A stretch of DNA of 64,000 nucleotides from Myxococcota bacterium (GTDB lineage Bacteria; Myxococcota_A; SURF-8; G963663525): contig CAXXVK010000059.1 in NCBI GenBank assembly GCA_963676915.2, positions 1-64,000 on the forward strand, written 5' to 3'. Within the stretch, counting starts at the first letter, position 1, and the number at the start of each line of letters is the position of its first letter. Made by a program: the position numbers and the translations under genes. The notes beneath the pieces are model-generated. The model had not been told where the DNA came from. It did no database searches and saw only the letters and a program-made list of their open reading frames with translations. Shown here piece by piece: positions 23,989 through 54,610 of this stretch.

Positions 23989-24064
23989 GCCAACGTAGCT
24001 CAGTTGGTAGAGCAGCTGATTCGTAATCAGCAGGTCAGGAGTTCAAGTCTCCTCGTTGGCTCCA
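23989..24064 (+). tRNA. trnT: tRNA-Thr(CGT)
   Basis: 76-nt cloverleaf GCCAACG...CGTTGGC-T-CCA, anticodon loop TT-CGT-AA, T-loop TTCAAGT. Confidence 0.97.
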
Positions 24065-24977: not shown

Positions 24978-24999
24978 GAATTTTAACTGATTGCCTTTA

Positions 25000-25866: not shown

Positions 25867-25877
25867 TAGCAAAAATG

Positions 25878-32890: not shown

Positions 32891-33190
32891 TCATCGGTAT
32901 TTCCTGTTGTATTCATCCATGAGTTTGCCCAAGGTGCCTTTGCGTTTACGGCTGATTCTGTCGATGGCAACGACCTTCCAGTCCTCCTCGGACATCGCGA
33001 CCAGCAGAGGAAGGCCGATCAGCGCGTAAGCTTTGCCATGTTCATCCCGAACGACTTCGAAAGAGATGATTTCGGTGCGTACTTCTTGACCGTCCTCGTA
33101 AAACGTCCGTTCCACCGTGATTTCATGGTCTCCGGCGTCGGCAATGCATTCCAATTGTGTGTTCAGTTTTTTCTTTTGGCCTGTAAACAT
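32891..33190 (-). CDS. Hypothetical protein (99 aa)
   Basis: ATG after AGAAGGA, overlapping the end of the resolvase gene. Confidence 0.45.
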   Translation of the reverse strand: MFTGQKKKLNTQLECIADAGDHEITVERTFYEDGQEVRTEIISFEVVRDEHGKAYALIGLPLLVAMSEEDWKVVAIDRISRKRKGTLGKLMDEYNRKYR

Positions 33191-33825
33191 GGCTTGGTTC
33201 CTTCTTGCTCCGGGTTTAGGCGGGTGATTCCGCGTTTTTTCATCCACTTGCAGAGGTTCGCCTCTGTCGTGTGGTACCTGGTAGCAATGTATTTTTGGGT
33301 CGATCCCACATTGAGCAGGGCTTCGATCTCCGGTCGAAACGGATCGAGCTTGCTCTTGCCCGGTCCCCTGGGGCGTCCGATGGGTTCTCCACGGGCTTTT
33401 TTCGCTCGTAAAGCTTCTCGGGTGCGGCTGGAAATCAGTTCCCGTTCGATCTCCGCCGCCATGCTGAACGCCATGGCGATGATTTTCGATTGGATCGTGC
33501 CGTCCAGCGTCCAATGACCCTTGATGGCATAGACTTTGATGCCTTTTTCCGTGGCGATGGAGAGGATTTCCATGCACTCCAGCATGGAACGCCCCAGCCG
33601 GGACAATTCGCTGACGATGAGGTGATCGCCTTGGCCGAGGTCGCTCAACACCGTGGCGATCTTGCGCTTCTTCCACGACACCTTGCCGGAGATTTTCTCC
33701 TCGGCCCATTGGACGTGACCGAGCTTTTTATCGTTGGCGAAAGTGAGGATGTCGGCTTTGTTTTTGTCGAGATCCTGATCGATGGTCGAGACCCGTAAAT
33801 AGGCGACGGTGCGGGTTTGGGACAT
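33163..33825 (-). CDS. Serine recombinase (resolvase/invertase family)
   Basis: AYLRVST..QD, GDHLIVSELSRLGRS, AEIERELISSRTREAL, GRPRG and a C-terminal HTH. Confidence 0.93.
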   Translation of the reverse strand: MSQTRTVAYLRVSTIDQDLDKNKADILTFANDKKLGHVQWAEEKISGKVSWKKRKIATVLSDLGQGDHLIVSELSRLGRSMLECMEILSIATEKGIKVYAIKGHWTLDGTIQSKIIAMAFSMAAEIERELISSRTREALRAKKARGEPIGRPRGPGKSKLDPFRPEIEALLNVGSTQKYIATRYHTTEANLCKWMKKRGITRLNPEQEGTKPCLQAKRKN

Positions 33826-34016
33826 GCATTTCTCCTTCCATTCGCCAAAAGACGCCAATATTCGTTATTGGGATAAGATTTCTTGTTCAGTACTCAATGC
33901 TTTTCAGTTGAAACGACTGCAACGAAAATCGATCGTTTTCGGTAAAGACTACAAAGAGTGAAACAGAGCGAGCTTTCACCAACTCGGAGCAACTTTTCGA
34001 TGTAACGGTTAACCTG

Positions 34017-34268
34017 TTAACGCTCATCGAGAATCTCCGCGATCAAGGGCCAGGTTTCCCGGTGGACACGCAGTAAGCAGGGACGACAGACCATCAGGAA
34101 TTTGAATCGGATAGTGCCTACGGATATGAGGTCTGTAACAAATCGACCGCAGTAGTAGCAGGCGTCGGGATCGATATGAATGATCTCCGCACCCATGAAT
34201 TCTTCGTAGAATTCAACAAGAGCGATGACATCTTCAAAGGGTGTGAAGTGCTTGATATCGTCTATCAT
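34017..34268 (-). CDS. Small Cys-motif hypothetical
   Basis: CYYC...CRPC, co-oriented in the operon. Confidence 0.4.
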   Translation of the reverse strand: MIDDIKHFTPFEDVIALVEFYEEFMGAEIIHIDPDACYYCGRFVTDLISVGTIRFKFLMVCRPCLLRVHRETWPLIAEILDER

Positions 34269-34272
34269 GGAT

Positions 34273-34872
34273 TCATTCATCCTTTGCATCCATCAGGACG
34301 CAACCGTTCAAGCGGACACGGAAGAAATCCTCGACCGGTTCAAACTCCCATACCTGGAGAGAGGATTTTGGCCAACCCCGTTTTCGTAAGTGACGATAGA
34401 TCATGCCGCAGGTGCCGAGCGAGACGACCAGATCGCCGTGATTCATGAAGGCTTTGGGCGGGACTCGTTCAAAGCTCCTGGGACGGCCCTCACGATCCTT
34501 GATTCTCGATCCCTGAAACAATGCCTTTAAAAACGTGTCGGTTGCCCCTTCTACAACGCCCGTTTCCGGCTGAAACCCTACTGGCCCCCGCCCGACCCAC
34601 GTATCGTTGCGTAGACGCCAACTATGGGCCTTCAACGCTGATTCCGGCTGACGAGCCTGTACGAAACAGACCAAAGAGAAAAAATCGACCAAGAACTTCA
34701 GGTTGCCCGGTTCCGGCAGGACGATGTGGAGACCGGCATAGGCTCGGATCTCTTCGGTGGTTCCGATCATCCCTTCCACTTTGCGTGACATTTTACAGGC
34801 GTTATAGGACTCAAGGGTCGGCATACGATCTCGCAGGATTCGTAGGATGCGTAGTTTGGATCGCTTATCCAT
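34273..34872 (-). CDS. Hypothetical protein
   Basis: Overlaps the stop of the upstream ORF. RBS GGAGGA. Confidence 0.5.
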   Translation of the reverse strand: MDKRSKLRILRILRDRMPTLESYNACKMSRKVEGMIGTTEEIRAYAGLHIVLPEPGNLKFLVDFFSLVCFVQARQPESALKAHSWRLRNDTWVGRGPVGFQPETGVVEGATDTFLKALFQGSRIKDREGRPRSFERVPPKAFMNHGDLVVSLGTCGMIYRHLRKRGWPKSSLQVWEFEPVEDFFRVRLNGCVLMDAKDE

Positions 34873-35275
34873 GAGGGTGTTCCTCCACGACAATGTTCTG
34901 CTGCTCCTGGATGTTTCTCATCCACGTATTGGCAAAGGAGGTTAGAGATTCTTGAAGACTCGGAATGAAGCGGTCGTAGCGATAATAGGACGGTTTGACG
35001 GCAAACTGCTCGATCATCGCGTTGCGGAAGTAGACCGGGTAGAATTGCCCCTCCTGATGGACAAACACCATTTCGGGATCGGGAACGAGGTCGCCGTTCA
35101 TTTCATAGTAATGCGCCACACTGATGAGGTCGTAACCCTGATCGGTTTGACCGAATTTCTCCACCACAGCGGCCATGAACGATGTCGATTGGTTGAACTT
35201 CCTCATCTCTCCGACGGGAATGTCGTGGGAGAGGTGTTCAAGGATGGCATTGGCCTTCGAATCCAACGATTTCAT
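34865..35275 (-). CDS. Conserved MGE hypothetical (DUF6908-like)
   Basis: ISVAHYYEMNGDLVPDPEMVF and FANTWMRNIQEQ. Confidence 0.65.
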   Translation of the reverse strand: MKSLDSKANAILEHLSHDIPVGEMRKFNQSTSFMAAVVEKFGQTDQGYDLISVAHYYEMNGDLVPDPEMVFVHQEGQFYPVYFRNAMIEQFAVKPSYYRYDRFIPSLQESLTSFANTWMRNIQEQQNIVVEEHPHG

Positions 35276-36285
35276 GATGATTTCCTTTCCTTGGTTTTCT
35301 TTTCGAGAACGCAGCCCGCCCAGTTGTCGGCGTATTGCAGCAGGCGGGTGAGCTTGGTTTCCTTGTGAGCCACGCCTTTGTTTTCATCGATGTACTGACC
35401 GTCATGAAAACGGATGGCCTGGCCTTCGTCCGCCGTGAGCTTGATGTGCTGGGAGACAAGAAACAGCGAGCGTGAGGCGATATCCATCCACGGGAGATCG
35501 TGATTGGTGATGTAGGTGATGTTGCGGTTGCGGACGTGCCATTGGCTGGGATTCGGGATGTAATACGGCTTCCCCGGCAGTCCGACCTTGCCGACATCAT
35601 GGTAAAGCGCCACGATCACGCAGCTTTCCTCTTCGATCTCCGGGGCCAGGACCGGGCGAAGTTTGAGGATGGTGTTGGCAACGTTCAACGAATGGATCAG
35701 CAAACCGCCTTCGATGTTGAGATGGTAGCGGGTGGACGCCGGTGCCGTCAGCCAGGCGGTTTCTTTTCGCAAGAAGCGGTCGAATCGTTGGACGGCCTCC
35801 GCTCGTTCGGTGATTTTTTCGAGAAGCTGGTCATACGAGAGGTTATCCGATGGATTCTTATGGCCGAGAAGCACTTTGGCCTGCTGAACGGCTTCCGTCC
35901 AGTTGCCCTCGAAGCGCAATGCCCTGTCATCGATATACAGATCGGCCAAGGGTTTGGAGGAAGTCCATGGGCCTTCCGGGTCGGTTTGGATGGCGTCATA
36001 CGGGATGCGGTTCACGCGCAGGTAGGAGTGCAACTTCGCGACGTGATCGTCCGAATTCGGCCTAGCGGTGTGGATGATGAGACGATAGCCGAGCTTCTTC
36101 AAATCTCTGAGCGCCTTCTGAACGCCTTCGATGGGTTCTCCGAACTCCTCGATACTCGATACCATTTGGGCAATGACGCCATCGAAATCCACACAGATGA
36201 CTTTGCTGCGTGGTGGCGATGGGCTTCGATCTTCGTGACCGCCCGGGCTGAGGACGCAGTTGTCCGGTTGTTCGTTCTTTTCCAT
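35272..36285 (-). CDS. HAD-like phosphatase fused to an HD-domain hydrolase
   Basis: CVDFDGVI and KPLADLYIDDRA, followed by APASTRYH...GGLLIHSLNV...ALYHDVGK...LLQYAD. Confidence 0.8.
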   Translation of the reverse strand: MEKNEQPDNCVLSPGGHEDRSPSPPRSKVICVDFDGVIAQMVSSIEEFGEPIEGVQKALRDLKKLGYRLIIHTARPNSDDHVAKLHSYLRVNRIPYDAIQTDPEGPWTSSKPLADLYIDDRALRFEGNWTEAVQQAKVLLGHKNPSDNLSYDQLLEKITERAEAVQRFDRFLRKETAWLTAPASTRYHLNIEGGLLIHSLNVANTILKLRPVLAPEIEEESCVIVALYHDVGKVGLPGKPYYIPNPSQWHVRNRNITYITNHDLPWMDIASRSLFLVSQHIKLTADEGQAIRFHDGQYIDENKGVAHKETKLTRLLQYADNWAGCVLEKKTKERKSS

Positions 36286-36300
36286 GTCGATTCTCCTTCG

Positions 36301-37719
36301 TTAGATCAATTCGAGGCCGAGAAAGCCCCTCGTATGAACCCCCGTGATTCGTCGCGTAGTGGTATGGAAACCGCGCTGCTTCAAGGCACGGCTCAAGGCT
36401 TTTTGACTCATGGGCTTGAGGGCGTGATCCAAGGCCCAGGTTTCATAGGATCGATAAAGATCCGCACTGGCAGAAAACCTGCTGCTGGACTCGTAACAGG
36501 CTTCGATCAGCCAATCCTCCACCTGGTCGCCTTCCTGACGATAAGCATCGGTCGCCAGCAAAACGGAATCCGGCGGGGTCAATCCCTTCTCCAGATAGTC
36601 CTGACAGCCCTGCAAGGCCCAATTGAGGATGCCGGGACCGGAAACGGAGGGATCGCAGAGGGTGCGTTTCAGGTAAGGATCGCGTTGAGGCTCCGGGACA
36701 CTACGGGGAAACGGCAGGCAGAGAATCCGCCGCCAGAGGGCATCATCCTCCTGATCGGCCAGAGGCGGATCGTTGGCGACTAGCCAGAGCGTGAATTGCG
36801 GTTTCCACTCCTGGGCTTCCTGATAGAGCGCTCTGGCGACGATGGTATCGCCGCCGGTCAGCATTTTGATGGTGGCTTCGGAGAGTTTCGCTCCCTTGTA
36901 GACTTCGTTGGCGACGACCAGGCGGGCTCCACGCAGTCGTGCGAGATCGTCCCGAGGGCCGCTGGAGGCACGATGTCGCAGGAACGAGGAAAAATCGGCG
37001 GTTCGGGCATAATCGCCGAAGACCATTTTGATGGCTTCGATGAACGTGGATTTTCCAGAAGCACCGGGACCGTAGACGAAAAAGAGCTTTTCCTCTTCGT
37101 TGGAGCCGAAAAGCGAATATCCGACGGCTCGTTGGATAAAGGCTTGCAGGGCGGCGTCTCCCTCGGTGGATTGATCGAGGAAACGGAGCCAATCGTCACT
37201 TTCGGCGTCGGCATCGAAGAGGACCGGGGAGATTTTGGAGACAAGATGCGCCGGTTGCGTCGGAATCAGATCCATCCTCATCAGGTCGATAAGGCCGTTT
37301 TTACAGCCGAGGAAATGAGGATCGGTATCGAAATCCTCTTCCCGAACGATGATCTCGGATTCGCTCTGTGCCGTCTCGATCATGGCTTTGAGACGTGCCA
37401 GGCTCTCGCAGGACCGTACATGCTTTTCGGTGGCATGTCGCTGTTTGGCGTCCTCGATGAGCTTGCAGTCGTCCTTCAACGCCTGAACGGACTCCTTGGC
37501 CCATCGCATGACCTGGCCGGTGTCATCAATACGCCACTTGGAACCGTCGAAGACGTACCAGCATCGTGTGCCATGACTGTACCGGATGCACTCGCCATGA
37601 CGAGCAATGAAACGACGGGCGATACCGATGTCGGTAAAGCCGAAAGCGGAATCATCAGAGCTGGTGTGAGTGTTGGCTTGAGAAGAGGAAACAACGGAAA
37701 TGGGAGAGCGTTTGGCCAT
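36301..37719 (-). CDS. Phage/plasmid P4-family D5_N + SF3 helicase (no primase domain)
   Basis: TDIGIARRF, WYVFDGSKW, GPGASGKSTF, LARLRGARLV..NE, IKMLTGGD.I.AR.LY and ALWRRI. Confidence 0.9.
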   Translation of the reverse strand: MAKRSPISVVSSSQANTHTSSDDSAFGFTDIGIARRFIARHGECIRYSHGTRCWYVFDGSKWRIDDTGQVMRWAKESVQALKDDCKLIEDAKQRHATEKHVRSCESLARLKAMIETAQSESEIIVREEDFDTDPHFLGCKNGLIDLMRMDLIPTQPAHLVSKISPVLFDADAESDDWLRFLDQSTEGDAALQAFIQRAVGYSLFGSNEEEKLFFVYGPGASGKSTFIEAIKMVFGDYARTADFSSFLRHRASSGPRDDLARLRGARLVVANEVYKGAKLSEATIKMLTGGDTIVARALYQEAQEWKPQFTLWLVANDPPLADQEDDALWRRILCLPFPRSVPEPQRDPYLKRTLCDPSVSGPGILNWALQGCQDYLEKGLTPPDSVLLATDAYRQEGDQVEDWLIEACYESSSRFSASADLYRSYETWALDHALKPMSQKALSRALKQRGFHTTTRRITGVHTRGFLGLELI

Positions 37720-37851
37720 GCCGAAAGCCCTCGATACAGGAAAGAAAGGGAATTCAAAAAACAGCAAAACCCCTCCCGAATGAACGGAAGGGATTGTTTA
37801 ACATACTGATAATACTACAGTATTGGTGAATTGTCAAATGGAGAAATTGAA

Positions 37852-38256
37852 TCATTTCTTTGTTTCGGGTTTATCCGTTGTCGGTTGCGCTTCCATTGGG
37901 TTGTCGTTGGATTCTTCTTCAATCGTTTGCTCGATAAAGCGCTGCTTGCTTTCGTCCCAACACCATACGTTGATTTGATCGGGATGCTTCTGGCACTCCC
38001 ACGGAGCGAGGGGACCATCGATCCCCTGAAGCTTCAGTGATTCGGTGGCGACCGTACCAACGGCTTGTCTTAGTTTTTCGGTCGCACGCTCTGTGATCTC
38101 CTGGTGGTTGGCGCAACTGACGGCAGAAAAACTAAAGAACAAGAGGACTATGCAGATTGTTAGACAGTTTTCTGGAAATAGATCTGCAAAACGACCATTG
38201 CTGGAAATATTCCGAGATATATCATTCCACTTTAATGAAGCTTTCATTTCTAACAA
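37852..38256 (-). CDS. Possible small lipoprotein; start unclear
   Basis: Hydrophobic stretch plus AVSC lipobox, but no ATG immediately upstream. Confidence 0.3.
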   Translation of the reverse strand: MLEMKASLKWNDISRNISSNGRFADLFPENCLTICIVLLFFSFSAVSCANHQEITERATEKLRQAVGTVATESLKLQGIDGPLAPWECQKHPDQINVWCWDESKQRFIEQTIEEESNDNPMEAQPTTDKPETKK

Positions 38257-40039: not shown

Positions 40040-40537
40040 TTAAGAATAGTCACTATCCAGCACCTTTTTCAATATGGCTTTGATTTCTTTTTTCTTGACG
40101 GTTTTTGCCATCATTTTGCCAATGGCTGGAAGGATATCATGCTCATGAACACGGCTATATTCAGAATAGGTTCTGGCCGCTCGGTTCGGTTTGATAACCT
40201 CTTCCAAGTATTGCTCTGACAGATCTTCGATTACCTGCGATTTTATCTTTTCGATACGTTGATTCAGAGGAACGGTCGCCGGATCATACCCCTGCTCAAG
40301 TCTTCGCACTGCATCACCATAAGCAGCGTGAGCCTTGGCGACTGTCATTTCTGGGTACTGCCCGAGTGTAAGCATTCTGGATTTGTTGTTGTACCGATAC
40401 ATGAAAATCCAGGATCTACGTCCAGTTGGAAAGATCCTAATGCCAAGATTTCCAAAACCGTAAGAATTCTCCTCCCAAACGTTGTAACGCTTGTCTCTTG
40501 GTTTCAGGCTAGAGATCTGTTTATCGGTGAATTTCAT
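40040..40537 (-). pseudogene. Truncated P4-like tyrosine integrase (arm-binding domain and part of the core-binding domain only)
   Basis: FTDKQI..LKP, LGIRIFPTGRRSWIFMYR, LTLGQYPEMTVAKA and G.DP. Stops at 165 aa with no catalytic domain. Adjacent to attR. Confidence 0.85.
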
Positions 40538-40706
40538 AATCAGTTGGTCTATTCGGGCTAGCACTGGGCTAGCATTTACAGGGTTGCAGTGGGTGAAAAC
40601 CAATGACACGGCATGAATACATAATACAGATAACATGTTGTAATTGCAAGTAATTCTAAAAACCTTCTGAATGCCATTGAAAGTCTATGAAATGCCATAG
40701 CTACTA

Positions 40707-41114: not shown

Positions 41115-41693
41115 CTATTGTCCAGTAGGCAATTTTCTATCGGCATTCTGGATCTGGCGGCGAGTGATCAGCCCCCGCTTAAGTGCTTCGGAAATAGCCT
41201 GCTCCAGAAGATCCCTAGGAAACGCTTCATCACCGGCAACATCCAGGATCGTTCGCATGGGGGGCGTCACAGCAACGCCGTGCATTTGCTGAATATCGGA
41301 TGGTGAAAGATCGGCAACATGAAGATGGAGAATATTCGGGATCTCGCTGTTGCGTCGAAATCCCTTCGGTACAATCATGTGGAGCCGGTCCGGATTGACA
41401 TCACTGAGATCGTGCAGCGCGAGGGCCGTGTCGTACGAGTAAACACCCTGGGGCTCTTCATTGCGGTTACGTGACCAGAGGTACCAGAGCATCAGATCTG
41501 GACGTTCGGTCTGGGGGTAGTTCGCCAGTCGGTAAATCCCCCGGTGCTCCCGGATCCAGTTACCCATTTCGACATGGTAGCCGATGGATTGTTCAAAGTA
41601 TCCCACGTCTTTCGCCTGTTTGGCCGTAAAGAAGCCCTGCTGGGCATCGGCAATATCGAACAGGCGTTTTGCTGTTTCAGTACTATCTCTCAT
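41115..41693 (-). CDS. Type IV TA AbiEi-family antitoxin (orphan)
   Basis: AQQGFFTAKQA, RGIYRL, VYSYDTALALHDLSD..P and VT...RTILD. Confidence 0.82.
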   Translation of the reverse strand: MRDSTETAKRLFDIADAQQGFFTAKQAKDVGYFEQSIGYHVEMGNWIREHRGIYRLANYPQTERPDLMLWYLWSRNRNEEPQGVYSYDTALALHDLSDVNPDRLHMIVPKGFRRNSEIPNILHLHVADLSPSDIQQMHGVAVTPPMRTILDVAGDEAFPRDLLEQAISEALKRGLITRRQIQNADRKLPTGQ

Positions 41694-41763: not shown

Positions 41764-42354
41764 TTAGGGATTGGGAAGAGTGCAGCAAAGCCGAATTACA
41801 ATAGTCTGCAGGATAGTTTCGGGCGAATCATGATCAGTTGAAAGAGGTGGAAGAACAGTGCATGGAAGTCTGCGCGCCAGCTGTTCCGCATGATCGCTTA
41901 CCTTCAAAAAGAACTGCATCAATTCCGTTGTTGGTCCTTGCTCACTCAGTCTTCGGCTCAAGGTATCAGTATCTATCCGTAATGGTTGAATCAATACTTT
42001 CTTCTCTATCGCACTTAGGAACCTCTGAATGACCGATAGATAGTGCAAATAGACATCCCTGTTTCGCATGGCGGCATAAGCGAGGTTTCCCGGATGCCAT
42101 GTTTCAACGATACGGGGGGCTTTGCATAACACGTCGCGAGCAATCTCTTCCTCGATGACCTTGCGGTCGAAAAGTGCTTCACTGTTGGCTGCGTGCGTTC
42201 CATCCGGTTTGGTCTGTTCAATTTCTCGATAGTAGCGCCCTATCTCGTCTTCAAAGGGAACTCCCAACCTTTCCGACAACATTTTTCCCAGTGTCGTCTT
42301 GCCGCTACCATGAGGTCCAATGAGGACCAAGATTGTATTTTCATACAGCTTCAT
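41764..42354 (-). CDS. P-loop nucleoside/nucleotide kinase-like protein
   Basis: LIGPHGSGKTT Walker A. ATGA overlap with the radical SAM gene. Confidence 0.75.
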   Translation of the reverse strand: MKLYENTILVLIGPHGSGKTTLGKMLSERLGVPFEDEIGRYYREIEQTKPDGTHAANSEALFDRKVIEEEIARDVLCKAPRIVETWHPGNLAYAAMRNRDVYLHYLSVIQRFLSAIEKKVLIQPLRIDTDTLSRRLSEQGPTTELMQFFLKVSDHAEQLARRLPCTVLPPLSTDHDSPETILQTIVIRLCCTLPNP

Positions 42355-43247
42355 ATTGCCTCCCACCATGTTAATACGTCTTCAGGATTTTCGACTTTTT
42401 TCATGTCGAAGGCTTGATCGCGGCGGAGCATGCAGGGTACGAGCAGACCGTCCGGCGTCAGACGCGCCGCATGAATGCCCTCTCTGCAAATCTTCCTTTG
42501 ACTGCAACTCTTGCACATGTGATAGGGGGCAAATTTTCCGAGCCGCTCGTGCTTGATCTCGACGATCATCTTACCGTAGTGGAGATGCTCAGTGGGCAGG
42601 CTGTAAGGGTCCGGGGCGACCACAATTTCATCAGGTCTTCCGAGAATGCGCTTCACGACCGCCTTCATGTCCTCAGGAGTCAGGTGTCCATTCAAGTCAT
42701 CCAGGGGATTCATGGTAGCGTTGTTCGACCGGGCCCAGTGCAACAGCTCGTGCAGATCACTAAAATCGCGTTCGCCCCGATAGACATAGTTTAGTTTGGG
42801 GTTGTAGGAGTGGGCAAGCAGATAGTCCAAGACGCGCATGCGCTGGTGGAATTGGCGATTGGAAGTTCCCGAACGGACGGCGGCTTCTTCCAGCGTGAAG
42901 CCGTGCAGGCTCAGGTTGATGCGGTCTAATCCGTTGGACAAGGCTGCTTTCACGACTTCCAGCGGTACGCAGCCGTTCGTGACTACAGAGAGGTCCGTAG
43001 TCGGAAAAACGTCGCGGATCTTACACAAGATGGAGATCAGGTGCGGATGTAAAAAAGCCTCACCTCCTAGGAGCTTGATTTTGCCGAGCAGCATCTCGGA
43101 TAACAGGTTCAGCCAGCGACCGAGATCCTCTGGCACCATGTCGGATTTCGGTTTCACATCGGCTCCCTCGCGGTGACAGTAGTTGCATTTCAGACCGCAG
43201 CGCTCCGTAATCTGAATGCGCAGGTAGCGGGGAATAGGGTTCAGCAT
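42351..43247 (-). CDS. MoaA-like radical SAM enzyme (not canonical MoaA)
   Basis: YLRIQITERCGLKCNYCH, KIKLLGGE, VTNG, RINLSL, KLN and C-terminal CKSC-x5-C...RLTPDG.L.PC. No terminal GG motif. Confidence 0.85.
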   Translation of the reverse strand: MLNPIPRYLRIQITERCGLKCNYCHREGADVKPKSDMVPEDLGRWLNLLSEMLLGKIKLLGGEAFLHPHLISILCKIRDVFPTTDLSVVTNGCVPLEVVKAALSNGLDRINLSLHGFTLEEAAVRSGTSNRQFHQRMRVLDYLLAHSYNPKLNYVYRGERDFSDLHELLHWARSNNATMNPLDDLNGHLTPEDMKAVVKRILGRPDEIVVAPDPYSLPTEHLHYGKMIVEIKHERLGKFAPYHMCKSCSQRKICREGIHAARLTPDGLLVPCMLRRDQAFDMKKVENPEDVLTWWEAI

Positions 43248-43828
43248 ACCGCCACCTCCTGCATCATGCCCATAGCGAGCTCAACCACTTCCTTTGGAGC
43301 GAGTTCAGTGGTATCGATGGAAATGACCCGCCCATGATATTCTTGCTGAAGCTCAGCTTGGTAGATCGTGCATAGTCGATCCGCCCGTTCCAGACTGTCA
43401 CGGTCGATGCGGGTGGTCTTATCGCGACCACGTATGCGCTGGTCCCTGACATCGGCGCCTGCCGTCAGAAAGAGCGTGACATCCGGCGTGAGGCAGTCAC
43501 GTTCCAGAGCATCTCGGCAAGGCTCGAACCCACCCAGGCGAGCGTATGCGATCGTGCTCGCCAGGTAACGGTCCATGACGTCCGAACGGCCACCAAGAAG
43601 AAGCTCCTGCGCCCTAACGCTAGCTCTCAGTACAGTGGAAGCGTAATAGTAAAAGCGCGCCGGGTAGATATCGGCAAGGTTGCTGTCGATCGTATCCCGC
43701 ACCGCTGATAATTCTTTGGGCGGCGTGGTCAGCAGCTCCGCCTTCAGCGATGTGGCCAGTAGATCAGCGACGGTCGATTTTCCCACTCCGTCCAGCCCTT
43801 CCACTACAACGAAGATCGGTTTCAGCAT
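43241..43828 (-). CDS. Thymidylate-kinase-fold NMP kinase (CMPK2-like)
   Basis: VVVEGLDGVGKST, LL.TPP, FYY, MDRYLASTIAY and PDVTLFL. Confidence 0.85.
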   Translation of the reverse strand: MLKPIFVVVEGLDGVGKSTVADLLATSLKAELLTTPPKELSAVRDTIDSNLADIYPARFYYYASTVLRASVRAQELLLGGRSDVMDRYLASTIAYARLGGFEPCRDALERDCLTPDVTLFLTAGADVRDQRIRGRDKTTRIDRDSLERADRLCTIYQAELQQEYHGRVISIDTTELAPKEVVELAMGMMQEVAVC

Positions 43829-43831
43829 GGC

Positions 43832-44323
43832 TTACACCTCCTCTTCGCACGCTGCTTCGATAGCCACCACTTCCGCTTGCCGTGATTTGCCTGCGAGACT
43901 GATGACGACCTCGTCGCTGATTTCCTTGCCGATCAGGTATTGTCCGAGGGGCGCATTGTAGGCTACCCGATTTCTGGCGGGGTCGCTGTCGTCGTAGCTG
44001 CCGATCACGAGGCGACGTTCTTCCTCCTCGTCCTCGAACAGGATCGTGACCGCGCATCCTGGAGTGACCCGCTCCGGGTCGGTCGGCGGCACGATCAGGT
44101 CGACACGGGTTAGGATTTCCTCCATTTCTTTGATTCGGCGGGCAAGTTGGTGCATCTGACGCTGGTTTTCTTCGTAGGCGAAGTTGTCATGCCACACAGA
44201 ATTGTCACCGGCATCGGCGGCATCCTCGTTCGTGGCGGTAACGCTGAAGTAAGCCTCGCGTACTTTTGAATATTGGTCGTTGAAGCGGGCCAAGCCGCCC
44301 TTGGTCATGATATAGCGGTTCAT
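43832..44323 (-). CDS. GreA/GreB-family factor with atypical acidic tip
   Basis: MTKGGL, AADAGDNSVWHDNFAYEE, and C-terminal YNAPLGQYLIGKEISDEV. ATGA overlap with the upstream ORF. Confidence 0.85.
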   Translation of the reverse strand: MNRYIMTKGGLARFNDQYSKVREAYFSVTATNEDAADAGDNSVWHDNFAYEENQRQMHQLARRIKEMEEILTRVDLIVPPTDPERVTPGCAVTILFEDEEEERRLVIGSYDDSDPARNRVAYNAPLGQYLIGKEISDEVVISLAGKSRQAEVVAIEAACEEEV

Positions 44324-44601
44324 CTCCCACCTCCCTGCCAATGGGCTGGGACGGATCCATCCAACTTGTAAACGGTTTTGATCAATCCCTGCGGTGTTAG
44401 GATTACGACCAAACGCTTGAGCTTACCGCGGATTTCTGCGGGAAGGGCCTTCCACTCCGGCTTTGAATTTTTACTGGGTAGGAAATATGCGAGGTCACCT
44501 GACCCTGCGTAATACTCCCGTCCGAATGACAAGGCACAATCAATAGCGAAGTCTCGAATGCCGCGCTGTTGAGCTCGTATCTCTGAGTGTCTGCTTTTCA
44601 T
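44320..44601 (-). CDS. DUF4258-like small protein (RelE/BrnT-like fold candidate)
   Basis: SRHSEIRAQQRGI...G....LVVIL...IKTVY. RBS GGAGG. Confidence 0.65.
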   Translation of the reverse strand: MKSRHSEIRAQQRGIRDFAIDCALSFGREYYAGSGDLAYFLPSKNSKPEWKALPAEIRGKLKRLVVILTPQGLIKTVYKLDGSVPAHWQGGGR

Positions 44602-44697: not shown

Positions 44698-45381
44698 TTA
44701 TTCGTCGGACTCATATTCTTCTGTAATTTTATGCACATATACTTGAACAGATGGTGCCTTTGCCGTCCGATCAACCCATTTAACGAATTCAGTAAAATTG
44801 TCTGGTTTCGGGTCTAGGTCGTCAACAGTATCGCTCGCGAACAGCCAGAAGGTCACTCGACCTTCTGAATCTTCAATTCTGTAGTCATCGACTTTACGTG
44901 GTTCGAAGGGCAGATCACTTACTGTATTTCTTTCGTCGGTCAAAATATGAAACTCTTCTTGATCATTGGTCGCCACAACCATCGCCCTTGCGGGAGTGGA
45001 AGTTAGATAGACCTTGATTCTGAATAGCCTCTTATCTTCGTCGTCCCGGATTAGATGTAGTCCCTCCGCATAGTCAATACATTGTGGAGTTCCACAAAGT
45101 GTTGCAACAGCCCTGAAAGTGGTAATGGGTTGGTCAAATACGGCCTTACCTTTTTCCCATAACGAAGTGACGAAAAAGGACAGTGTCTGGATTGATTCTG
45201 AACAGATGTGATCTTGCTTTTCCTGGTTCCATTCGAAGCCAAGATAGTCGAGCACATTCAGAATTCGATCATCCTGGCATCGGCCCAACCAGAGGTCAAC
45301 TTCGATCCGGTCTTCACGTGTGAGTTGTCCCCGAACAAGCTTGCGGAGGGTGGCAACATCTGGTGGAAGTTTGATAGGCAT
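44698..45381 (-). CDS. Hypothetical with degenerate zf-HC2 anti-sigma-like N-terminus
   Basis: PDVATLRKLVRGQLTREDRIEVDLWLGRC resembles L..Y..G.L...E...VE.HL..C..C. TGATG overlap with the upstream ORF. Confidence 0.5.
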   Translation of the reverse strand: MPIKLPPDVATLRKLVRGQLTREDRIEVDLWLGRCQDDRILNVLDYLGFEWNQEKQDHICSESIQTLSFFVTSLWEKGKAVFDQPITTFRAVATLCGTPQCIDYAEGLHLIRDDEDKRLFRIKVYLTSTPARAMVVATNDQEEFHILTDERNTVSDLPFEPRKVDDYRIEDSEGRVTFWLFASDTVDDLDPKPDNFTEFVKWVDRTAKAPSVQVYVHKITEEYESDE

Positions 45382-45998
45382 CAGGAAAAATTCTCCTTCC
45401 ACATTTCTATCGTTTTTGCAATCTCACGCTGCTCTGTTTCCGATAGAACCTCATCAATTTTCAGAAAATCCGTTATCGAACCACGAATGGCCAATGCAAT
45501 AAATGGTTCTTCGTGGATCGAGCAATCTCGACCAACCAACTCCATCACAGTGTCCTTGCTACCTTTAGCTGATTCGAGCCGTAATTCCCTTGCTGTTTTC
45601 CATTTTTCACCAAATCCAGGAGCACTCTTTAGTCTTCCCGCAAATGAGTAAGGTGGCTCATCCTTCTCAAACTTTGAAAAGTATACAGCAGTTATCGCAT
45701 CGAGGTACTCAGGTTTCCTAAAAATAGAAACATCGCCCAAAATCCCTTTCCAAACCACGCAATGCCGCCAAGCAGCCAGAAGTCCATATTTCGATCGATT
45801 GCCTTTAGTGAAATTAAGCATTTCAGAAGGCAGTTCAGTGTTAATTGGCTCAGGCTGAAATCCTAACACCCTTAAAGCCCGTTTAGCATGCCGAAACCAG
45901 ATTGGTCGCATGGCAGGACAGGTCGTATCCGCCATATCTCCGAGGGCGATAATGATTTCCCTGTAAAGTTTCTCTTTAGCAGAATCACTCATGTTCAC
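45381..45998 (-). CDS. Hypothetical protein between the CHAT and anti-sigma-like genes
   Basis: 205-aa ORF starting 1 bp after the CHAT stop and overlapping the next gene. Confidence 0.6.
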   Translation of the reverse strand: MNMSDSAKEKLYREIIIALGDMADTTCPAMRPIWFRHAKRALRVLGFQPEPINTELPSEMLNFTKGNRSKYGLLAAWRHCVVWKGILGDVSIFRKPEYLDAITAVYFSKFEKDEPPYSFAGRLKSAPGFGEKWKTARELRLESAKGSKDTVMELVGRDCSIHEEPFIALAIRGSITDFLKIDEVLSETEQREIAKTIEMWKENFS

Positions 45999-45999
45999 A

Positions 46000-48900
46000 T
46001 CAGTTCGCTATTGCGGATAGATCACTTGCCAATACTCTCCAACCAGCCCAGGTCCAGGGTGCTCGAAGTACATCCATTAATTTGTCAATTGCGGCGTCTG
46101 GTTGCTTTATCCATGCATCTTCCCGGCCCTGATTCTTTCGCTTGACAGGTCCAAGCATCACTTGGTCAAAAGAAACTATGGAAAAATCCTCGTATCTGAT
46201 GTGTGGAACATCGGGATCCAACCGTTGGTGAGAGGCTATTAGAGCTCCAACTATTGATCGTCTTTTTACCTCATCTCCATTAAAACCACCACTGATAGCG
46301 TTTTGGGCAAACTCGCGCAAAGTGCTTTCGAAAATTCCCTTTGCCGTCATCAAGTCACGGTACCAGAAGATGGCTTTACCGAGAGCACGTGCGTCTTCAG
46401 TTGCCGAATGAGAATTCTCCGCGAAACGGTTAAATGCATCGGCAATCAGTATTGCAGAAATTGGATGTTGCTTCCAGGATGATCCGATAACACGCTTGGC
46501 TCCTGCTACCAAGAAAGCTGTGGCTATCCCTCGTGGTTCATCAAAATCAAGTGAATAGCTTAGAGGGTCAAAATAATGTGCTGAATCGCAAGCCCAAAGT
46601 TCAACACGTGCGCACCTCGTCAGATCAGCACATCGAATTTCCGATATTCCCCAAGGAAAAATGATTGGCTCAGCCAGTTTCCTGTCGTCAAGCATGATGC
46701 CGCTGGCCGAATCTGGAAAATTGTAGTATTTCCCATGCGCAAAGATCTTTAGGTTCCTAGCCTGTGAAAACTGGCTTTCAAGTTCTATCCTGGCAGCCTC
46801 TGTATCCATACCATCTTTTGCGCAATGGGCTACTCTGGATGTATCCCTGGACAGAAGCGGACCTGCCAGATGCAGTATTGAATCATGATCTTTTGGCGTA
46901 CCAATGTACAGAACGTCAGTTGAGTTATCATCGCTGTTTGTAGATAGCCTTGCGGATAACGTATTCAGACGGATAATTGCTATGACCTCTGATAGTGTTT
47001 CTAGTCCAGTCGATATGGGAATCGCCTCCAAAGGCAATTCCCGTACTCCTTTTCGATCGAGGAGGACAAGCGAATGTATATCGTTTTCTTCCGTAATCTT
47101 GTGGAGTTTTTCTCCAATGGGAAGTAAGTCGGATAGGAGTTGATTCAACAAGTCATTGAACTCTTCAAGTGCTGATTCAGAAATTCCCAGAGACCTAAGC
47201 TTGGGCATGTATTTTAGAAGGTCATCTTCTAGGCCGGAAAAATGGTCTGGACTTATTATCGATCCAGTTTCAATATTTTGCACCGATTCGAAATCAATTC
47301 TACTCCGAACATCCATCAAACGATCCAAGGCCTCCAAAAGTTGGTCATTCTGATCGTTTGATTCTCCAAATACTGGTATTTCCCGGATTTCATGTCCATC
47401 CAATAGGAACAGACTTATCGTGGCATTTCGATTCTCGTTGTTATAACCACCAATCGTCAGGATTCCTGTACGGCTATTCTTCTCTAGCCAATTTATCAAT
47501 TCTTCAAGATCAAGTCTTGGAATTTTAAGATTTCCAGAAGGAAGGAATCCTTTTTCCTGCCCTTCCTTGAACAAATCACCCAGCAACGCCGCTTCTCGAA
47601 ACATCTCTTCTGTGGGATTCTTGTTTTGCTCTTGGGTAATATTTCCATCAGGGTTGAAATTGTAGTTGAAGCTCTCTATAGGTAACTTCTGAATACTTGA
47701 AAGGATTGGGTCGTTAACATCCAGAGCCAATTCATGGAAGTGGTGGTCGGCCCATTTTTCGAGGGTCACCCTAGTCCGGTACAAATTCATTCGCCAGACC
47801 GCTTCGCTATATGTTTTAACCTCGCCTTGACCATAAAACCCCATATCGCTCCGATAACAAGCGGCTCCGGACATTTCGGCGAGTTCGAGAAATTTTTCTG
47901 CAGATACTACTCGCTTATTTCTTGCTGGATCCAAGATGGAAAGAAAATTCATTTGCCTGGAAATCAACAACCTGTAAACATTTGGAAGCCTGACATCTAC
48001 CAGCTGAGACTCTAGATCAGCCAATCGTTTTGATAGGTAGGTGCTTAAAGCTTCATCTCCAATATTTTTAAGGTGCCGTTTTAAGAACATCCACTCTTGA
48101 ATAAGCACCACTTTGGTTTCTTTCAATCCAGTATCGAGAAGATTTATATGTTGCAAACATGTGCGAAGAGACGGCAATGCTTCACTTGGGTTTTCGCGAA
48201 TCGACATGAGGGCTGACGAAAGATGTCCAGCATCCGTTCGCCCCAGAATTCCGTTTCCTGCGATTCGCATGAGCAATGAGTCCAGACCTGTTCTTGGATC
48301 AACAGCAGTTTCAAGATTCGCTAGCTGTTCATAAACCTGGATATTTTGTGCGACGCCAGAGGTGTGACGTCTTGGGTGCTTTTTCAAAAGTGGTAGTATT
48401 CTGTCCGCAAGAAGTTTTAGCCTCTCTTCTTTTTCCTCTTCTGTTACTTCACCTCTCTGATGCAGGAAATGGATGTATTCACGTTTGGCATTGGAGAAAT
48501 TTAATTCCTTCTCAATGCGCTCAATTGACATGGGTTGCTTGCGATAGTATTCAGCCAAAGATTCTTCATGGATATCTATTGCATTGAGATAATATAGGTG
48601 TCGATCCTCATCATCTGTGCAGTTGTCAGCCAAGTACTTATAGGCGGAAGCCAGAGAGGACTGTGTCATCCAGAATTGGTTTGGACTATTTATTCTTTCC
48701 TGAATAGAATTCGCTTTTCGAAAGTATTCTACTGCCTTCTGCAAGTTTGACGTGCGGTCACCTGACGACTCATCCTTCATTGCTTCTGCAAGATTATGAA
48801 GAATCTGACCAAGAAGACCCGATAGATTTGGATCATACGTGTCGTCTAACATCCTCTCTGAAACAGATACGAGTTCTTGAAGTATTCCATTCCCCCAATC

Positions 48901-49422
48901 ACGGTCACTCAAATACGGTGAATTTACTAAGCACATACCGAGGCGCATTCGGATGTCGATCAGAAGGGATTGACTATTGGGTTTGTTTGAATTTCTCAGA
49001 CTTGAGAGGGGGACGAGGTTATTGACTTCCAATATTAACGTGAGTGCAAGAGGATCATCAACTTGGGTTTTCCCCACATAGACCCATGCGAATCCAATAA
49101 CAGCAGTAATATCTTCGGAAGAAAATACTTTGGATTTTGTTGCAGAAATATACTTAAGCAGCAATAGCAGAAAGAATGGATTGGCTATCCTTTGAGGATC
49201 ACCGAGTATTTCCTTCCTTCTTTGTTTCGATGGAACCTTGCCATATTTCATCACCTGAGCGACTGTTTCTGCTGCCTTTTCTGGATGGACACCCTCATCT
49301 TCGATCAAGGAAACAAAATGCTTCCAACCTTTTCGGAAAATATTTCCACCTTTATAGCGTAATCGAGAAGATGACTTGATTTGTTTCTTATTCTTCGGCA
49401 TGCAGATAAAGTTTCTATTCAC
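46000..49422 (-). CDS. TPR-like + CHAT (caspase-like) protease
   Basis: Helical repeats (LHNLAEA...NLQKAVEYF, QSSLASAY), LPLEAI, FAHG (His), LWACDS (Cys), GIATAFLVAGAKRVIGS.W and PWTWAGW. Confidence 0.85.
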   Translation of the reverse strand: MNRNFICMPKNKKQIKSSSRLRYKGGNIFRKGWKHFVSLIEDEGVHPEKAAETVAQVMKYGKVPSKQRRKEILGDPQRIANPFFLLLLLKYISATKSKVFSSEDITAVIGFAWVYVGKTQVDDPLALTLILEVNNLVPLSSLRNSNKPNSQSLLIDIRMRLGMCLVNSPYLSDRDWGNGILQELVSVSERMLDDTYDPNLSGLLGQILHNLAEAMKDESSGDRTSNLQKAVEYFRKANSIQERINSPNQFWMTQSSLASAYKYLADNCTDDEDRHLYYLNAIDIHEESLAEYYRKQPMSIERIEKELNFSNAKREYIHFLHQRGEVTEEEKEERLKLLADRILPLLKKHPRRHTSGVAQNIQVYEQLANLETAVDPRTGLDSLLMRIAGNGILGRTDAGHLSSALMSIRENPSEALPSLRTCLQHINLLDTGLKETKVVLIQEWMFLKRHLKNIGDEALSTYLSKRLADLESQLVDVRLPNVYRLLISRQMNFLSILDPARNKRVVSAEKFLELAEMSGAACYRSDMGFYGQGEVKTYSEAVWRMNLYRTRVTLEKWADHHFHELALDVNDPILSSIQKLPIESFNYNFNPDGNITQEQNKNPTEEMFREAALLGDLFKEGQEKGFLPSGNLKIPRLDLEELINWLEKNSRTGILTIGGYNNENRNATISLFLLDGHEIREIPVFGESNDQNDQLLEALDRLMDVRSRIDFESVQNIETGSIISPDHFSGLEDDLLKYMPKLRSLGISESALEEFNDLLNQLLSDLLPIGEKLHKITEENDIHSLVLLDRKGVRELPLEAIPISTGLETLSEVIAIIRLNTLSARLSTNSDDNSTDVLYIGTPKDHDSILHLAGPLLSRDTSRVAHCAKDGMDTEAARIELESQFSQARNLKIFAHGKYYNFPDSASGIMLDDRKLAEPIIFPWGISEIRCADLTRCARVELWACDSAHYFDPLSYSLDFDEPRGIATAFLVAGAKRVIGSSWKQHPISAILIADAFNRFAENSHSATEDARALGKAIFWYRDLMTAKGIFESTLREFAQNAISGGFNGDEVKRRSIVGALIASHQRLDPDVPHIRYEDFSIVSFDQVMLGPVKRKNQGREDAWIKQPDAAIDKLMDVLRAPWTWAGWRVLASDLSAIAN

Positions 49423-50454: not shown

Positions 50455-51807
50455 TCATATCGCGATTCGCAAGATTCGGATATTTGAGTCTGACTCAACG
50501 CCAAAAGTCAACTGCCTTGCGAACTGCTGTTTCCCCCGCTCGGTCTGGATGCTTTTCGGTGCGTCAATCCACTTCACCAGTTCTGTTAGGTATACCGGGC
50601 GCAGACGGACTTCGCTCATCTTCTTGCCGGATACGGGTTCGTGAATGGCGATCCGTGACTCGCTGGCCCTGGAACTCATCGTTGGATAGAGGATCGTTGA
50701 GGCTTTCACCTGTGGATGCGCCAGGGCGTACATGCCAAGTTGATAGAGCATATCGCGAGGCAGCGCGTGTTCCCACAGATCCCGGTATTTTGCGTCTAGA
50801 ACTTCTACTGTCCGCGCCTCTTTACGAATAATAAAGTCGGGTCGCGGCAACGGTGCGCGTCGACGCTTGGGGTTGAAATCCGGCTGATAGGCGAACATAC
50901 CCTTCAATGAATGCTCTTCCAGAACCTCGAATTCCGGTAGGTTCTCACGTAGAAAGCGACCAAGCACGCTCTGATACAAGCGGTTCATGTCAAACAGGAA
51001 GCCCGGTATCGGCTGTTCGCTTTCGCTCGAATCCAGCAGGATGCCGTGCGACTGGGCCAATAGCTTTGCAAGGGTAATGGCCGGTTTGTAGTGGCGCAAC
51101 AGCCTTCCGTGCTGTCGATCCAGCTCATCAAAAAATGCTTTGGATAATCGTTGTTCAGATACATCTTCTGACATCACGGACGATAGCTGGCGACATCGAA
51201 ATGCCAGCTGCTTATCGATGGTTAAACGCGCCGCAAGAGCGAGGGACGCCCGCAGGCACTGATTGTGTGGAATGTCGAGAAGACGCGGGTGAATCCGACA
51301 TGGCAGGCGGCTGTCCTGGCGAAAGCCGTCTCTTGCGATGCGTGGGATATCGAGGCGCCCCCTGGGCAACGCCAAATAGCGTTGCTGATCGATGTAACGT
51401 TTTGACAGACCACGCTGCATCAGCGTCTTGATCTCCGCCAGCAGCTGAACGATGAGCAGTTCCACGAGGCCGGATTCTTCGGTATGGATCTCCGATGGAT
51501 CGAAGAGGTGTAGTTTGTTCAGATCGTAAGCATACCGAAAAAGAGAAAGCAGCGGGAGTCGGTCGATCTTGGGTTGAATGTTGAACAGGACCGGGCCGAC
51601 CTGCAAACGCCCGACATAGGACGTGGTTTCAATTTCCAATCCTGATTTCAGATCCTTAACCTGAAGAAATCCGGCACGCGATAGCTTCTCGGCCAGGTTG
51701 CGATCCGGTTCACTCAACGAGATCGGAACGGATGCGCCTCTGTCGTCGACAAGCGTTTTTCGTTGCCACTCATGAAGATTCAGAGAGATATCCGCCTGAT
51801 TGGTCAT
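50455..51807 (-). CDS. mcrC: McrC-family restriction subunit
   Basis: SYVGRL, IQPKI, RGRLD, FDMNRLYQ, RPDF, VLDAKYR and DMLYQL.MYA. Overlaps the McrB stop. Confidence 0.92.
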   Translation of the reverse strand: MTNQADISLNLHEWQRKTLVDDRGASVPISLSEPDRNLAEKLSRAGFLQVKDLKSGLEIETTSYVGRLQVGPVLFNIQPKIDRLPLLSLFRYAYDLNKLHLFDPSEIHTEESGLVELLIVQLLAEIKTLMQRGLSKRYIDQQRYLALPRGRLDIPRIARDGFRQDSRLPCRIHPRLLDIPHNQCLRASLALAARLTIDKQLAFRCRQLSSVMSEDVSEQRLSKAFFDELDRQHGRLLRHYKPAITLAKLLAQSHGILLDSSESEQPIPGFLFDMNRLYQSVLGRFLRENLPEFEVLEEHSLKGMFAYQPDFNPKRRRAPLPRPDFIIRKEARTVEVLDAKYRDLWEHALPRDMLYQLGMYALAHPQVKASTILYPTMSSRASESRIAIHEPVSGKKMSEVRLRPVYLTELVKWIDAPKSIQTERGKQQFARQLTFGVESDSNIRILRIAI

Positions 51808-54573: not shown

Positions 54574-54610
54574 GAGTTCCTCTCTTGCGTTCCCAGTTTC
54601 CTAAAAACAT

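Follow-up and report, generated by a model that had tools for sequence, protein, structure and literature searches.

A recurrent radical SAM, kinase and Gre-factor cassette of Myxococcota that may make a nucleotide analogue and shield the host RNA polymerase from it

What would a bacterium gain by keeping a paralogue of the transcript-cleavage factor Gre in one operon with an enzyme of the radical S-adenosylmethionine (SAM) class and two nucleotide kinases? The question is raised by five genes, g1 to g5, in a 64,000-nt stretch of DNA from a Myxococcota bacterium (assembly GCA_963676915.2, 5.18 Mb, 90.8% complete; contig CAXXVK010000059.1), hereafter called the window. A preliminary description, made from the sequence of the window, had presented these genes as a candidate new antiviral nucleotide-modifying operon. 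Our analysis narrows the conserved unit to four genes, which encode a Gre paralogue (g2), a thymidylate-kinase-like (TMK-like) protein (g3), a twitch-type radical SAM enzyme (g4) and a second P-loop kinase (g5). We tentatively favour the explanation that this cassette makes a sugar-modified nucleotide analogue and that the Gre paralogue gives the host RNA polymerase self-immunity to it, the whole forming an antiviral or conflict module; we consider this plausible but short of probable.

The five open reading frames (ORFs) lie co-oriented on the minus strand and span positions 41764-44601 in the ORF list. Their junctions, read from the sequence, are all as tight as the preliminary description had them. 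The stop of g1 and the start of g2 share the bases ATGA (44323-44320), coupling g1 translationally to g2, and a 3-nt gap (43829-43831) separates the stop of g2 from the ATG of g3. Between g3 and g4 the overlap is 7 nt (ATGCTGA, 43247-43241), and g4 and g5 again share ATGA (42354-42351). A GGAGG-like stretch precedes every start. For g2 and g5, the true starts are ATGs within longer TTG/ATG ORFs, at 44323 and 42354, where the homologue alignments begin.

The same genes recur together in other genomes. A scan of one genome per species returned 46 loci, of which 41 belong to the family (L001-L041) and five hold distant radical SAM genes; L019 and L020 are apparently one locus recorded twice. Partners were counted with hidden Markov models (HMMs) built on the cassette proteins. 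The g5 kinase is present in 40 of the 41 family loci, four of these being cut or broken fragments. Gre is present in 37, and the other four loci extend no more than ~0.7 kb past the radical SAM or kinase gene. The TMK-like gene is present in 30 of the 41 loci, and a contig end cuts it in five. Two gene orders predominate, radical SAM-kinase-Gre-TMK in 21 loci and the order of the window, Gre-TMK-radical SAM-kinase, in nine; they are circular permutations of each other. A third order goes with radical SAM proteins that are ~30% identical, and reads radical SAM-TMK-Gre-kinase in G043 and radical SAM-TMK-gap-kinase in G010. Most cassette junctions overlap by 1-4 nt, and Gre lies directly upstream of TMK in 30 of the 30 loci that have both genes. 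With its four-gene core found again in 30 of 41 related loci, the arrangement goes far beyond what chance would produce, and the linkage data show that the four cassette proteins work together. The expectation that all five genes would keep their order was not borne out: g1 is found in two cassettes only, that of the window and that of L031, and the conserved unit has four genes.

The distribution of the family in the phylum supports the same linkage. Of 400 evenly sampled genomes from the phylum, 17 have the radical SAM family (E <=1e-40), as 14 core members (>=347 bits) and three more distant ones. The Gre subfamily is present in 15 of the 400 genomes (E <=1e-30), including all 14 that have a core radical SAM gene. 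The two genes share a contig in 13 of the 14 core genomes, and the Gre gene of the fifteenth genome lies 0.4 kb from a contig end. This sample overlaps the phylum sample of the window itself; one contig, for instance, appears with identical coordinates under G010 and G404. In near relatives the family was not found, neither in the one same-genus genome nor in the eight same-order genomes. Its hosts are almost all metagenome-assembled genomes (MAGs) of Myxococcota. Mobile-element collections gave no family member, with matches of 23-31% identity on IMG/VR contigs (seven loci), at most 29% in PLSDB (seven records) and 23% in GenBank phages (two records). Among the partners in the cassette, the Gre paralogue stands out as the most distinctive and the most strictly linked; the preliminary description had assigned no role to it.

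All-against-all clustering of the ORFs of the 41 loci and the window gave no conserved neighbour beyond the four genes. Clusters c4, c6, c7 and c11, considered as neighbours, were judged to be antisense artefacts of the cassette genes, which are rich in guanine plus cytosine (GC). Real neighbours that recur are of two kinds, each in four loci: Ser/Thr kinases (c8) and an FGE-sulfatase-like protein (c9). The Ser/Thr protein kinases beside the cassette in L012, L023, L033 and L037 (c8), and one more in L031, are large; their recurrence may be chance, such kinases being abundant in the phylum. Two single loci are also worth recording. In the low-GC locus L030, where TMK is missing, a second radical SAM ORF (644 aa, L030:11347-13281) stands between the radical SAM-kinase pair and an inverted Gre gene. 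In L035, and there only, a co-oriented NUDIX hydrolase gene (L035:2742-3359) follows the TMK-like gene at 103 bp, and could be a nucleotide-clearing accessory, similar in idea to the ThmC protein discussed below.

Is g4 an ordinary MoaA? The motifs listed in the preliminary description are all found in it (YLRI, KIKLLGGE, TNG, RINLSL and KLN). Beside the radical SAM motif CxxxCxxC it has the cysteines C245-x2-C248-x5-C254-x17-C272, and it ends in ...WWEAI, so that the reported lack of a terminal GG and shift of the C-terminal Cys cluster are both correct. We take the C-terminal GG tail of MoaA to be important. Pfam finds Radical_SAM (E 6e-17) and Fer4_12 in g4; Mob_synth_C (PF06463) is absent from the Pfam scan of g4, whereas the true MoaA matches P0036, P0037 and P0140 carry it. 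The scores of g4 lie far below the cut-offs of the MoaA models, at 107.9 bits against 325.25 for TIGR02668, 105.7 against 231 for NF001199 and 100 against 284.05 for TIGR02666. An assignment as viperin was rejected on score as well (38.6 bits against a cut-off of 180 for NF038283), and the prokaryotic viperin (pVip) models of PADLOC match g4 weakly (E 5e-12 and 4e-10). A word-index search with g4 gave 34 relatives at 37-44% identity and then fell to 25-26% at annotated MoaA carrying PF06463. The g4 family profile gave 153 representatives at E <=1e-30 among 1.84 billion.

Alignment to Staphylococcus aureus MoaA shows what is shared and what is changed. The g4 residues R10, K56, K58, N111, K151 and R262 correspond to MoaA R17, K69, R71, N124, K163 and R268, and vary little or not at all within the family; as the preliminary description had it, g4 thus retains the N-terminal and basic pocket positions of the MoaA type. 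We take these MoaA positions to line the triphosphate and base pocket, and the title of PDB entry 2fb2 names R17, R266 and R268. C261 and C278 of MoaA correspond to C254 and C272 of g4, the position of C264 is occupied by I258, and the invariant C245 and C248 are additional and lie upstream. The same division is seen in a quick maximum-likelihood tree (LG+G4, SH-aLRT) of 96 rows, which comes from a short search and has several long branches. It holds g4, 81 mostly full-length members of the 150 best representatives, P0036, P0037 and 12 viperins (L066-L077) as outgroup. Here, g4 falls in a 17-row clade (support 99) within a 54-row clade (96), in which 53 of the 54 rows have CxxCx5C. The MoaA rows form a separate 24-row clade (93) with an inner clade of 21 rows (95), of which 19 have CxxCx13C and none has CxxCx5C. 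Relative to the viperins, g4 therefore stands on the MoaA side but outside the MoaA clade. In addition, the genome of the window has no MoaA above cut-off, the best match to the MoaA model being g4 itself, and neither MoaC (PF01967) nor MoeA_N (PF03453); the controls matched in 11 of 14 genomes. A role of g4 in molybdenum cofactor (Moco) synthesis was rejected on these grounds, and scores, domain scan, tree and genome search together support the earlier view of a radical SAM enzyme that is neither viperin nor true MoaA.

Which chemistry, then, does g4 resemble? Its AlphaFold model has a pLDDT of 91.7, and Foldseek places it nearest to MoaA (TM-score 0.70-0.71), followed by AbmM (8wm2, TM-score 0.67) and then by SuiB, BlsE, DesII and viperins. 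The closest solved folds MoaA, AbmM, BlsE, DesII and the viperins all act on nucleotides or nucleotide sugars. By profile, the best PDB match of the family is AbmM 8wm2 (E 4.5e-30, 107.9 bits), with MoaA at 95.9 bits. The C-terminal stretch of AbmM aligns with the identical spacing C-x2-C-x5-C-x17-C, in a match that covers profile positions 6-115 and 246-280 only, and g4 and AbmM are distant kin. AbmM swaps sulfur for oxygen in albomycin biosynthesis with its own iron-sulfur cluster as sulfur donor, and the nucleoside kinase AbmG is required for the thiofuranose core (PMC12691670).

The Gre paralogue g2 retains the architecture of a Gre factor and differs from it at the tip. Both Pfam domains are found, GreA_GreB (PF01272, E 9.5e-16) and GreA_GreB_N (PF03449, E 1.2e-5), so that the coiled coil and the globular domain are both present. 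The family profile matches GreA 1grj over its full length (E 1e-18, positions 6-161 against residues 2-156), while the NCBIfam GreA model gives 76.6 bits against a cut-off of 145. The coiled-coil tip is the most conserved part of the family. Although identity among its 34 sequences is otherwise 33-51%, the residues G39, D40, H45, D46, N47, F48, A49, E51 and R55 do not vary. The acidic positions D40 and D46, which align to the GD and EN of GreA, are thus both kept. Between the GD and (D/E)N positions, three residues are inserted with respect to 1grj and the GreA of the host, and the enlarged tip has the extra invariant residues W44 and H45. The housekeeping GreA of the host is encoded elsewhere (187.6 bits against a cut-off of 139), is 31% identical to g2 and has the canonical shorter tip.

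Both kinases also keep their catalytic motifs. In g3, Pfam finds Thymidylate_kin (E 1.4e-19), and its TIGR00041 score of 62 bits stays below the cut-off (83.25); the housekeeping dTMP kinase of the host is a different protein, with 166.9 bits. Without exception, 29 sequences keep the P-loop E10-G11-x-D13-G-x-G16-K17, the triplet D86-R87-Y88 and three arginines of the lid, R128, R131 and R135; we take the P-loop, DRY and arginine lid to be the catalytic motifs of the dTMP kinase family. In PADLOC, g3 matches PDC-M51B over nearly its full length (E 2.7e-41) and VakA (E 7.3e-19). Only PDC-M51B was matched within PDC-M51, the other seven of the eight scanned proteins having no PDC-M51 match at E <=0.01. 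A complex prediction for g3 and g2 scored 0.00 against a mark of 0.32, a result that counts neither for nor against binding. The second kinase, g5, matches Pfam AAA_28 (E 2.1e-8), and G13-x-H15-G-x-G18-K19 and E84-x-W86-H87-x-x-N90 are invariant in 35 sequences. Its model (pLDDT 93.3) is nearest to the deoxyadenosine kinases 8puu and 2jat and to thymidylate kinases (TM-score 0.6-0.67), and its Atlas neighbours are deoxynucleoside kinase (dNK), TMK and AAA_28 clusters, many of them viral. By sequence profile, its similarity to solved kinases is confined to the P-loop. Like g3 and g2, g4 and g5 fall well short of the scores that the curated NCBIfam models require of housekeeping enzymes.

The association of the radical SAM enzyme with kinases, proposed earlier, is supported both by the linkage of two nucleos(t)ide kinases and by gene fusions. 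In P0098, P0101 and P0106 (505-508 aa), which belong to three different 50%-identity clusters, the g5 HMM matches the N-terminal half (E 7e-16 to 6e-20), and in P0119 an AAA_18 kinase lies C-terminal to the radical SAM domain. These four kinase-radical SAM fusions thus occur in either domain order. Another relative, P0123 (1318 aa), has four radical SAM stretches.

The folds of the cassette point to nucleotide chemistry acting on RNA polymerase, and from them and the linkage we infer a substrate, a product, a role for Gre and a target. In the favoured model, g4 would alter a nucleotide sugar, most likely to a 4'-thio or another ribose-modified product; the 4'-thio product is a concrete candidate because g4 has an AbmM-type cluster. 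The g5 kinase would work directly with g4, and g3, g5 and host enzymes would raise the compound to a triphosphate. It is known that factor-stimulated cleavage is able to rescue multisubunit polymerases from 3'-terminal chain terminators. The Gre paralogue could enter the active site of RNA polymerase through the secondary channel with its remodelled but acidic tip, and would most likely allow the host enzyme to remove the analogue from the 3' end of a stalled transcript and restart, which would amount to self-immunity. Polymerases unable to use this paralogue, such as those of phages, would stay blocked. The antiviral reading in this genome follows from the position of the module within a defence island. 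Since the defence neighbours are confined to this window, the target may be phages or competing bacteria. If correct, the cassette would be a new kind of conflict system with a transcript-cleavage factor as its immunity determinant, which excises a ribose-modified, possibly 4'-thio, nucleotide only from the multisubunit polymerase of the host and leaves invaders or competitors poisoned; this stronger claim we regard as doubtful.

Several observations weigh against the favoured explanation. In L005, L011, L030, L031, L034 and L039, six loci in all, TMK is absent despite available DNA. The defence association seen in the window, with Zorya, McrBC and AbiEi, was not seen elsewhere: among the 52 nearest neighbours at 33 other loci nothing defence-specific recurs, in a comparison that had no background control. 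These 52 were taken from 150 flank ORFs as the nearest of at least 150 aa, with our own crude ORF picker and with a few larger ORFs set aside by hand. Their matches include four Ser/Thr kinases, which account for all 25 PADLOC families among the matches listed for the flanks, and single cases such as RAMP, a ResIII helicase, an rve_3 integrase, NUDIX, HIT, Ppx-GppA, ribosomal protein L2 and sigma-70; ten co-oriented immediate neighbours show a similar mix. PADLOC gave no match for g2, and its viperin-related models are met only weakly by g4 (E 5e-12). The role proposed for the Gre paralogue is drawn from its conserved residues and its linkage. The closest solved relative by profile, AbmM, belongs to an antibiotic pathway. 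According to PMC12691670, the 4'-thiothymidine cluster of Photorhabdus is likewise a small unit, with the radical SAM gene thmA, the AbmG-like kinase gene thmB and the NTPase gene thmC for self-resistance, and its flanks vary by species.

The position of AbmM as closest solved relative opens another reading, which the preliminary description had not raised and in which the cassette is a minimal nucleoside-antibiotic cluster, for example for a 4'-thioribonucleoside, directed against bacteria that are competitors or prey. Here g4 and the dNK-fold protein g5 would correspond to AbmM and AbmG or to ThmA and ThmB, and Gre would be the self-resistance of the producer, guarding the RNA polymerase that the compound attacks. 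This reading shares every step of the favoured model except the target. The identical Cys spacing in the best PDB match, the dNK-like fold of the g5 model, the nearly exclusive occurrence in Myxococcota MAGs and flanks that are not rich in defence genes are all in line with it, and AbmM/AbmG chemistry and the three-gene ThmA-C set with its self-resistance provide precedents (PMC12691670). However, no exporter or tailoring gene is conserved with the cassette, and two kinases that drive a compound to the di- or triphosphate in the producer would suit an intracellular agent better than a secreted prodrug. The neighbours in the window are defence systems, and the same source says that ThmA does not resemble AbmM. 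We consider an antibiotic cluster unlikely.

The role of Gre would be reversed if the small nucleotide ligand made by the enzymes acted together with the Gre-like factor on the host RNA polymerase, as ppGpp acts with DksA, so that transcription was reprogrammed or shut down under stress or infection. The strict co-occurrence of the Gre subfamily with the radical SAM family and the position of Gre directly upstream of TMK in every locus with both would fit such a regulatory pair, and the invariant enlarged tip with W44 and H45 could touch a ligand near the active site. Against this, a patchy distribution (17 of 400 phylum genomes and none of nine close relatives) would be unusual for a core regulator, and no sensor or regulator is conserved beside the cassette. 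We regard regulation as improbable. By far the least probable is the reading of g4 as an ordinary MoaA in molybdenum cofactor synthesis with incidental neighbours. MoaA models are indeed its best NCBIfam matches (E 5e-31 to 1e-28), MoaA structures are its top Foldseek matches and JGI names some of its relatives MoaA. These likenesses are countered by scores of 100-108 bits where the cut-offs are 231-325, by the lack of Mob_synth_C and of the terminal GG, by I258 at the C264 position with two extra invariant Cys upstream, by a clade apart from the CxxCx13C rows, by a genome with no MoaC or MoeA_N and by the four-gene linkage across 30 loci.

The small protein g1 stands apart from the four-gene core. 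It was described earlier as DUF4258-like, which holds below threshold for g1 itself (E 0.026, 15.3 bits, cut-off 25, with no family at E <=0.01) and above the cut-off for its homologue at L031:1994-2341 (29.8 bits). The two are 27% identical (pairwise E 2e-8), and the top Atlas cluster of g1 is DUF4258 (score 0.91). DUF4258 belongs to the RelE/ParE superfamily and is listed among the BECR-fold toxin families, with unknown activity (PMC11980606). A tblastn search of the 46 loci with g1 found only the weak relative in L031, and a word-index search found no other homologue. In both genomes g1 is placed within the cassette, though not at the same position, which makes it probably an optional addition.

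The island around the cassette is summarized in Table 1. All of its defence components named in the preliminary description, Zorya, McrBC and AbiEi, were matched.

Table 1. Coordinates of the cassette genes and of other features in the window; cells are empty where no value applies.
Feature	Coordinates	Strand	Description
g1	44320-44601	-	93 aa, DUF4258-like small protein
g2	43832-44323	-	163 aa, Gre-family paralogue
g3	43241-43828	-	195 aa, thymidylate-kinase-like nucleoside monophosphate (NMP) kinase
g4	42351-43247	-	298 aa, twitch-type radical SAM enzyme
g5	41764-42354	-	196 aa, P-loop kinase, deoxynucleoside-kinase/TMK-like fold
AbiEi	41115-41693	-	E 1.4e-68
Integrase N-terminal remnant	40040-40636	-	198 aa, Arm-DNA-bind_3 and SAM-like domain only
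CHAT-domain protein	46000-49422	-	1140 aa, PF12770, E 5e-9
McrC	50455-51807		library match
McrB-like AAA_5 protein	51804-53624		library match
ZorD	56084-59410		E 0
ZorC	59432-60841		E 3e-113
D5_N primase	36301-37767		library match
tRNA-Thr	23989-24064		

The same-genus genome matches this region in separate pieces. The segment at 33.1-38.1 kb (33151-38116), which encodes an HD-domain protein and the D5_N/DUF5906 primase, is 91% identical at one place, and the McrBC block (50458-55000) matches elsewhere in that genome at 87% identity, which shows the island to be a mosaic of mobile modules. The segment at 39.7-50.4 kb has no counterpart in that genome apart from short repeats. The idea that the cassette is compositionally foreign was rejected, its GC content of 0.54 equalling the 0.539 of the window's left 23 kb; for the CHAT and ZorD genes the value is 0.44. 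An Rfam scan of the window matched only the tRNA, and promoter and terminator scans gave counts no higher than in shuffles.

Three neighbours deserve a short comment. Just upstream of the cassette, at 44698-49422 on the minus strand, the CHAT protein and two proteins that are tightly coupled (205 and 234 aa) form an operon of their own, with a GC content of 0.44, which does not occur in the same-genus genome. The two smaller proteins have no Pfam, NCBIfam or PADLOC match, and this three-gene operon is a candidate for a separate caspase-like system. AbiEi, co-oriented with g5 and 70 nt downstream of it, stands alone: no minus-strand ORF of at least 50 aa lies between it and the integrase remnant, so that an AbiEii partner is missing at that position. 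AbiEi might regulate the cassette. Beside the tRNA-Thr gene, a stretch of ~870 bp (window ~24998-25875) recurs at 10 or more dispersed sites of the same-genus genome (84% identity), and looks like an insertion sequence.

In agreement with the preliminary description, we found no name for the set in Pfam, NCBIfam, PADLOC or the literature that our searches listed. No radical SAM-kinase-Gre cassette was found in the literature, as judged from the titles and abstracts of part of the matches. Nothing was found under "PDC-M51", nor on "MoaA-like" together with "phage defense", and "Gre factor" does not occur in the top matches on viperin, ddhCTP and chain terminators. A separate observation concerns viperins in this phylum. 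The prokaryotic viperin model scores above cut-off in 38 of 401 phylum genomes, several of the ORFs being 471-596 aa long and hence fused; none is in the genome of the window.

If the favoured explanation is true, viperin would no longer be the one radical SAM route to nucleotide analogues with antiviral or antibacterial action, and the recently solved thionucleoside chemistry of AbmM would be linked to a far wider family. Gre-type factors would gain a new job, that of actively clearing a poison nucleotide out of RNA polymerase. Under the stronger claim, which we regard as doubtful, a self-made nucleotide analogue would for the first time in nature be met by self-resistance based on proofreading, and a large radiation of MoaA/AbmM-like radical SAM enzymes, ~100 clusters at 50% identity, would be devoted to such compounds. 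How producers of chain terminators spare their own polymerase would then become testable with four small genes. In addition, the compound could be of interest for nucleoside-drug work, and the Gre paralogue could be a tool for studies of the polymerase active site.

The cassette proteins may be compared with known families and systems. Like MoaA, g4 has the fold, the CxxxCxxC motif and the positions aligned to R17, K69, R71, N124, K163, R268 and C278. Unlike MoaA, it scores below the cut-offs, has other auxiliary ligands and neither Mob_synth_C nor GG, falls in a separate clade and has no Moco partners in its genome. GreA and GreB, and also Gfh1 and Rnk, share both Pfam domains with g2, whose profile aligns with GreA and GreB along its whole length and whose tip keeps GD and (D/E)N; g2 differs by its sub-cut-off score, by the 3-residue tip insertion with the invariant W and H and by its tie to the cassette (14 of 15 genomes in the 400-genome sample). 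The dTMP kinase family shares the P-loop, DRY and arginine lid with g3 and differs in the sub-cut-off TIGR00041 score. The PDC models, one of which g3 matches, derive from 145 untested candidates embedded in BREX, DISARM and type I restriction-modification systems (10.1101/2024.01.29.577857).

Among radical SAM systems, prokaryotic viperins resemble the cassette in pairing an enzyme of the MoaA/viperin neighbourhood with NMP-kinase-type genes, in the match of g3 to VakA and in the defence island of the window. In contrast to them, g4 has a second four-Cys cluster domain, its alignments to viperins stop near residue 170 and the cassette adds Gre. A study of viperin evolution describes the viperin-kinase pairing and uses MoaA only as outgroup and negative control (10.1101/2023.09.13.557418). 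The nucleoside clusters around AbmM/AbmG and thmA-C differ from the cassette in another way. AbmM is of a different family from g4, with bits near those of MoaA and only the N-terminal half and the Cys motif matched, and these clusters have no Gre factor and no TMK-like kinase, self-resistance being provided by the NTPase ThmC (PMC12691670). Nevertheless, they and the cassette alike combine a twitch radical SAM enzyme with a protein of the nucleoside kinase fold, and g4 has the Cys spacing of AbmM. As far as that source describes it, thmA-C is, like the cassette, a small self-contained unit with a possible self-protection gene and varying flanks (PMC12691670).

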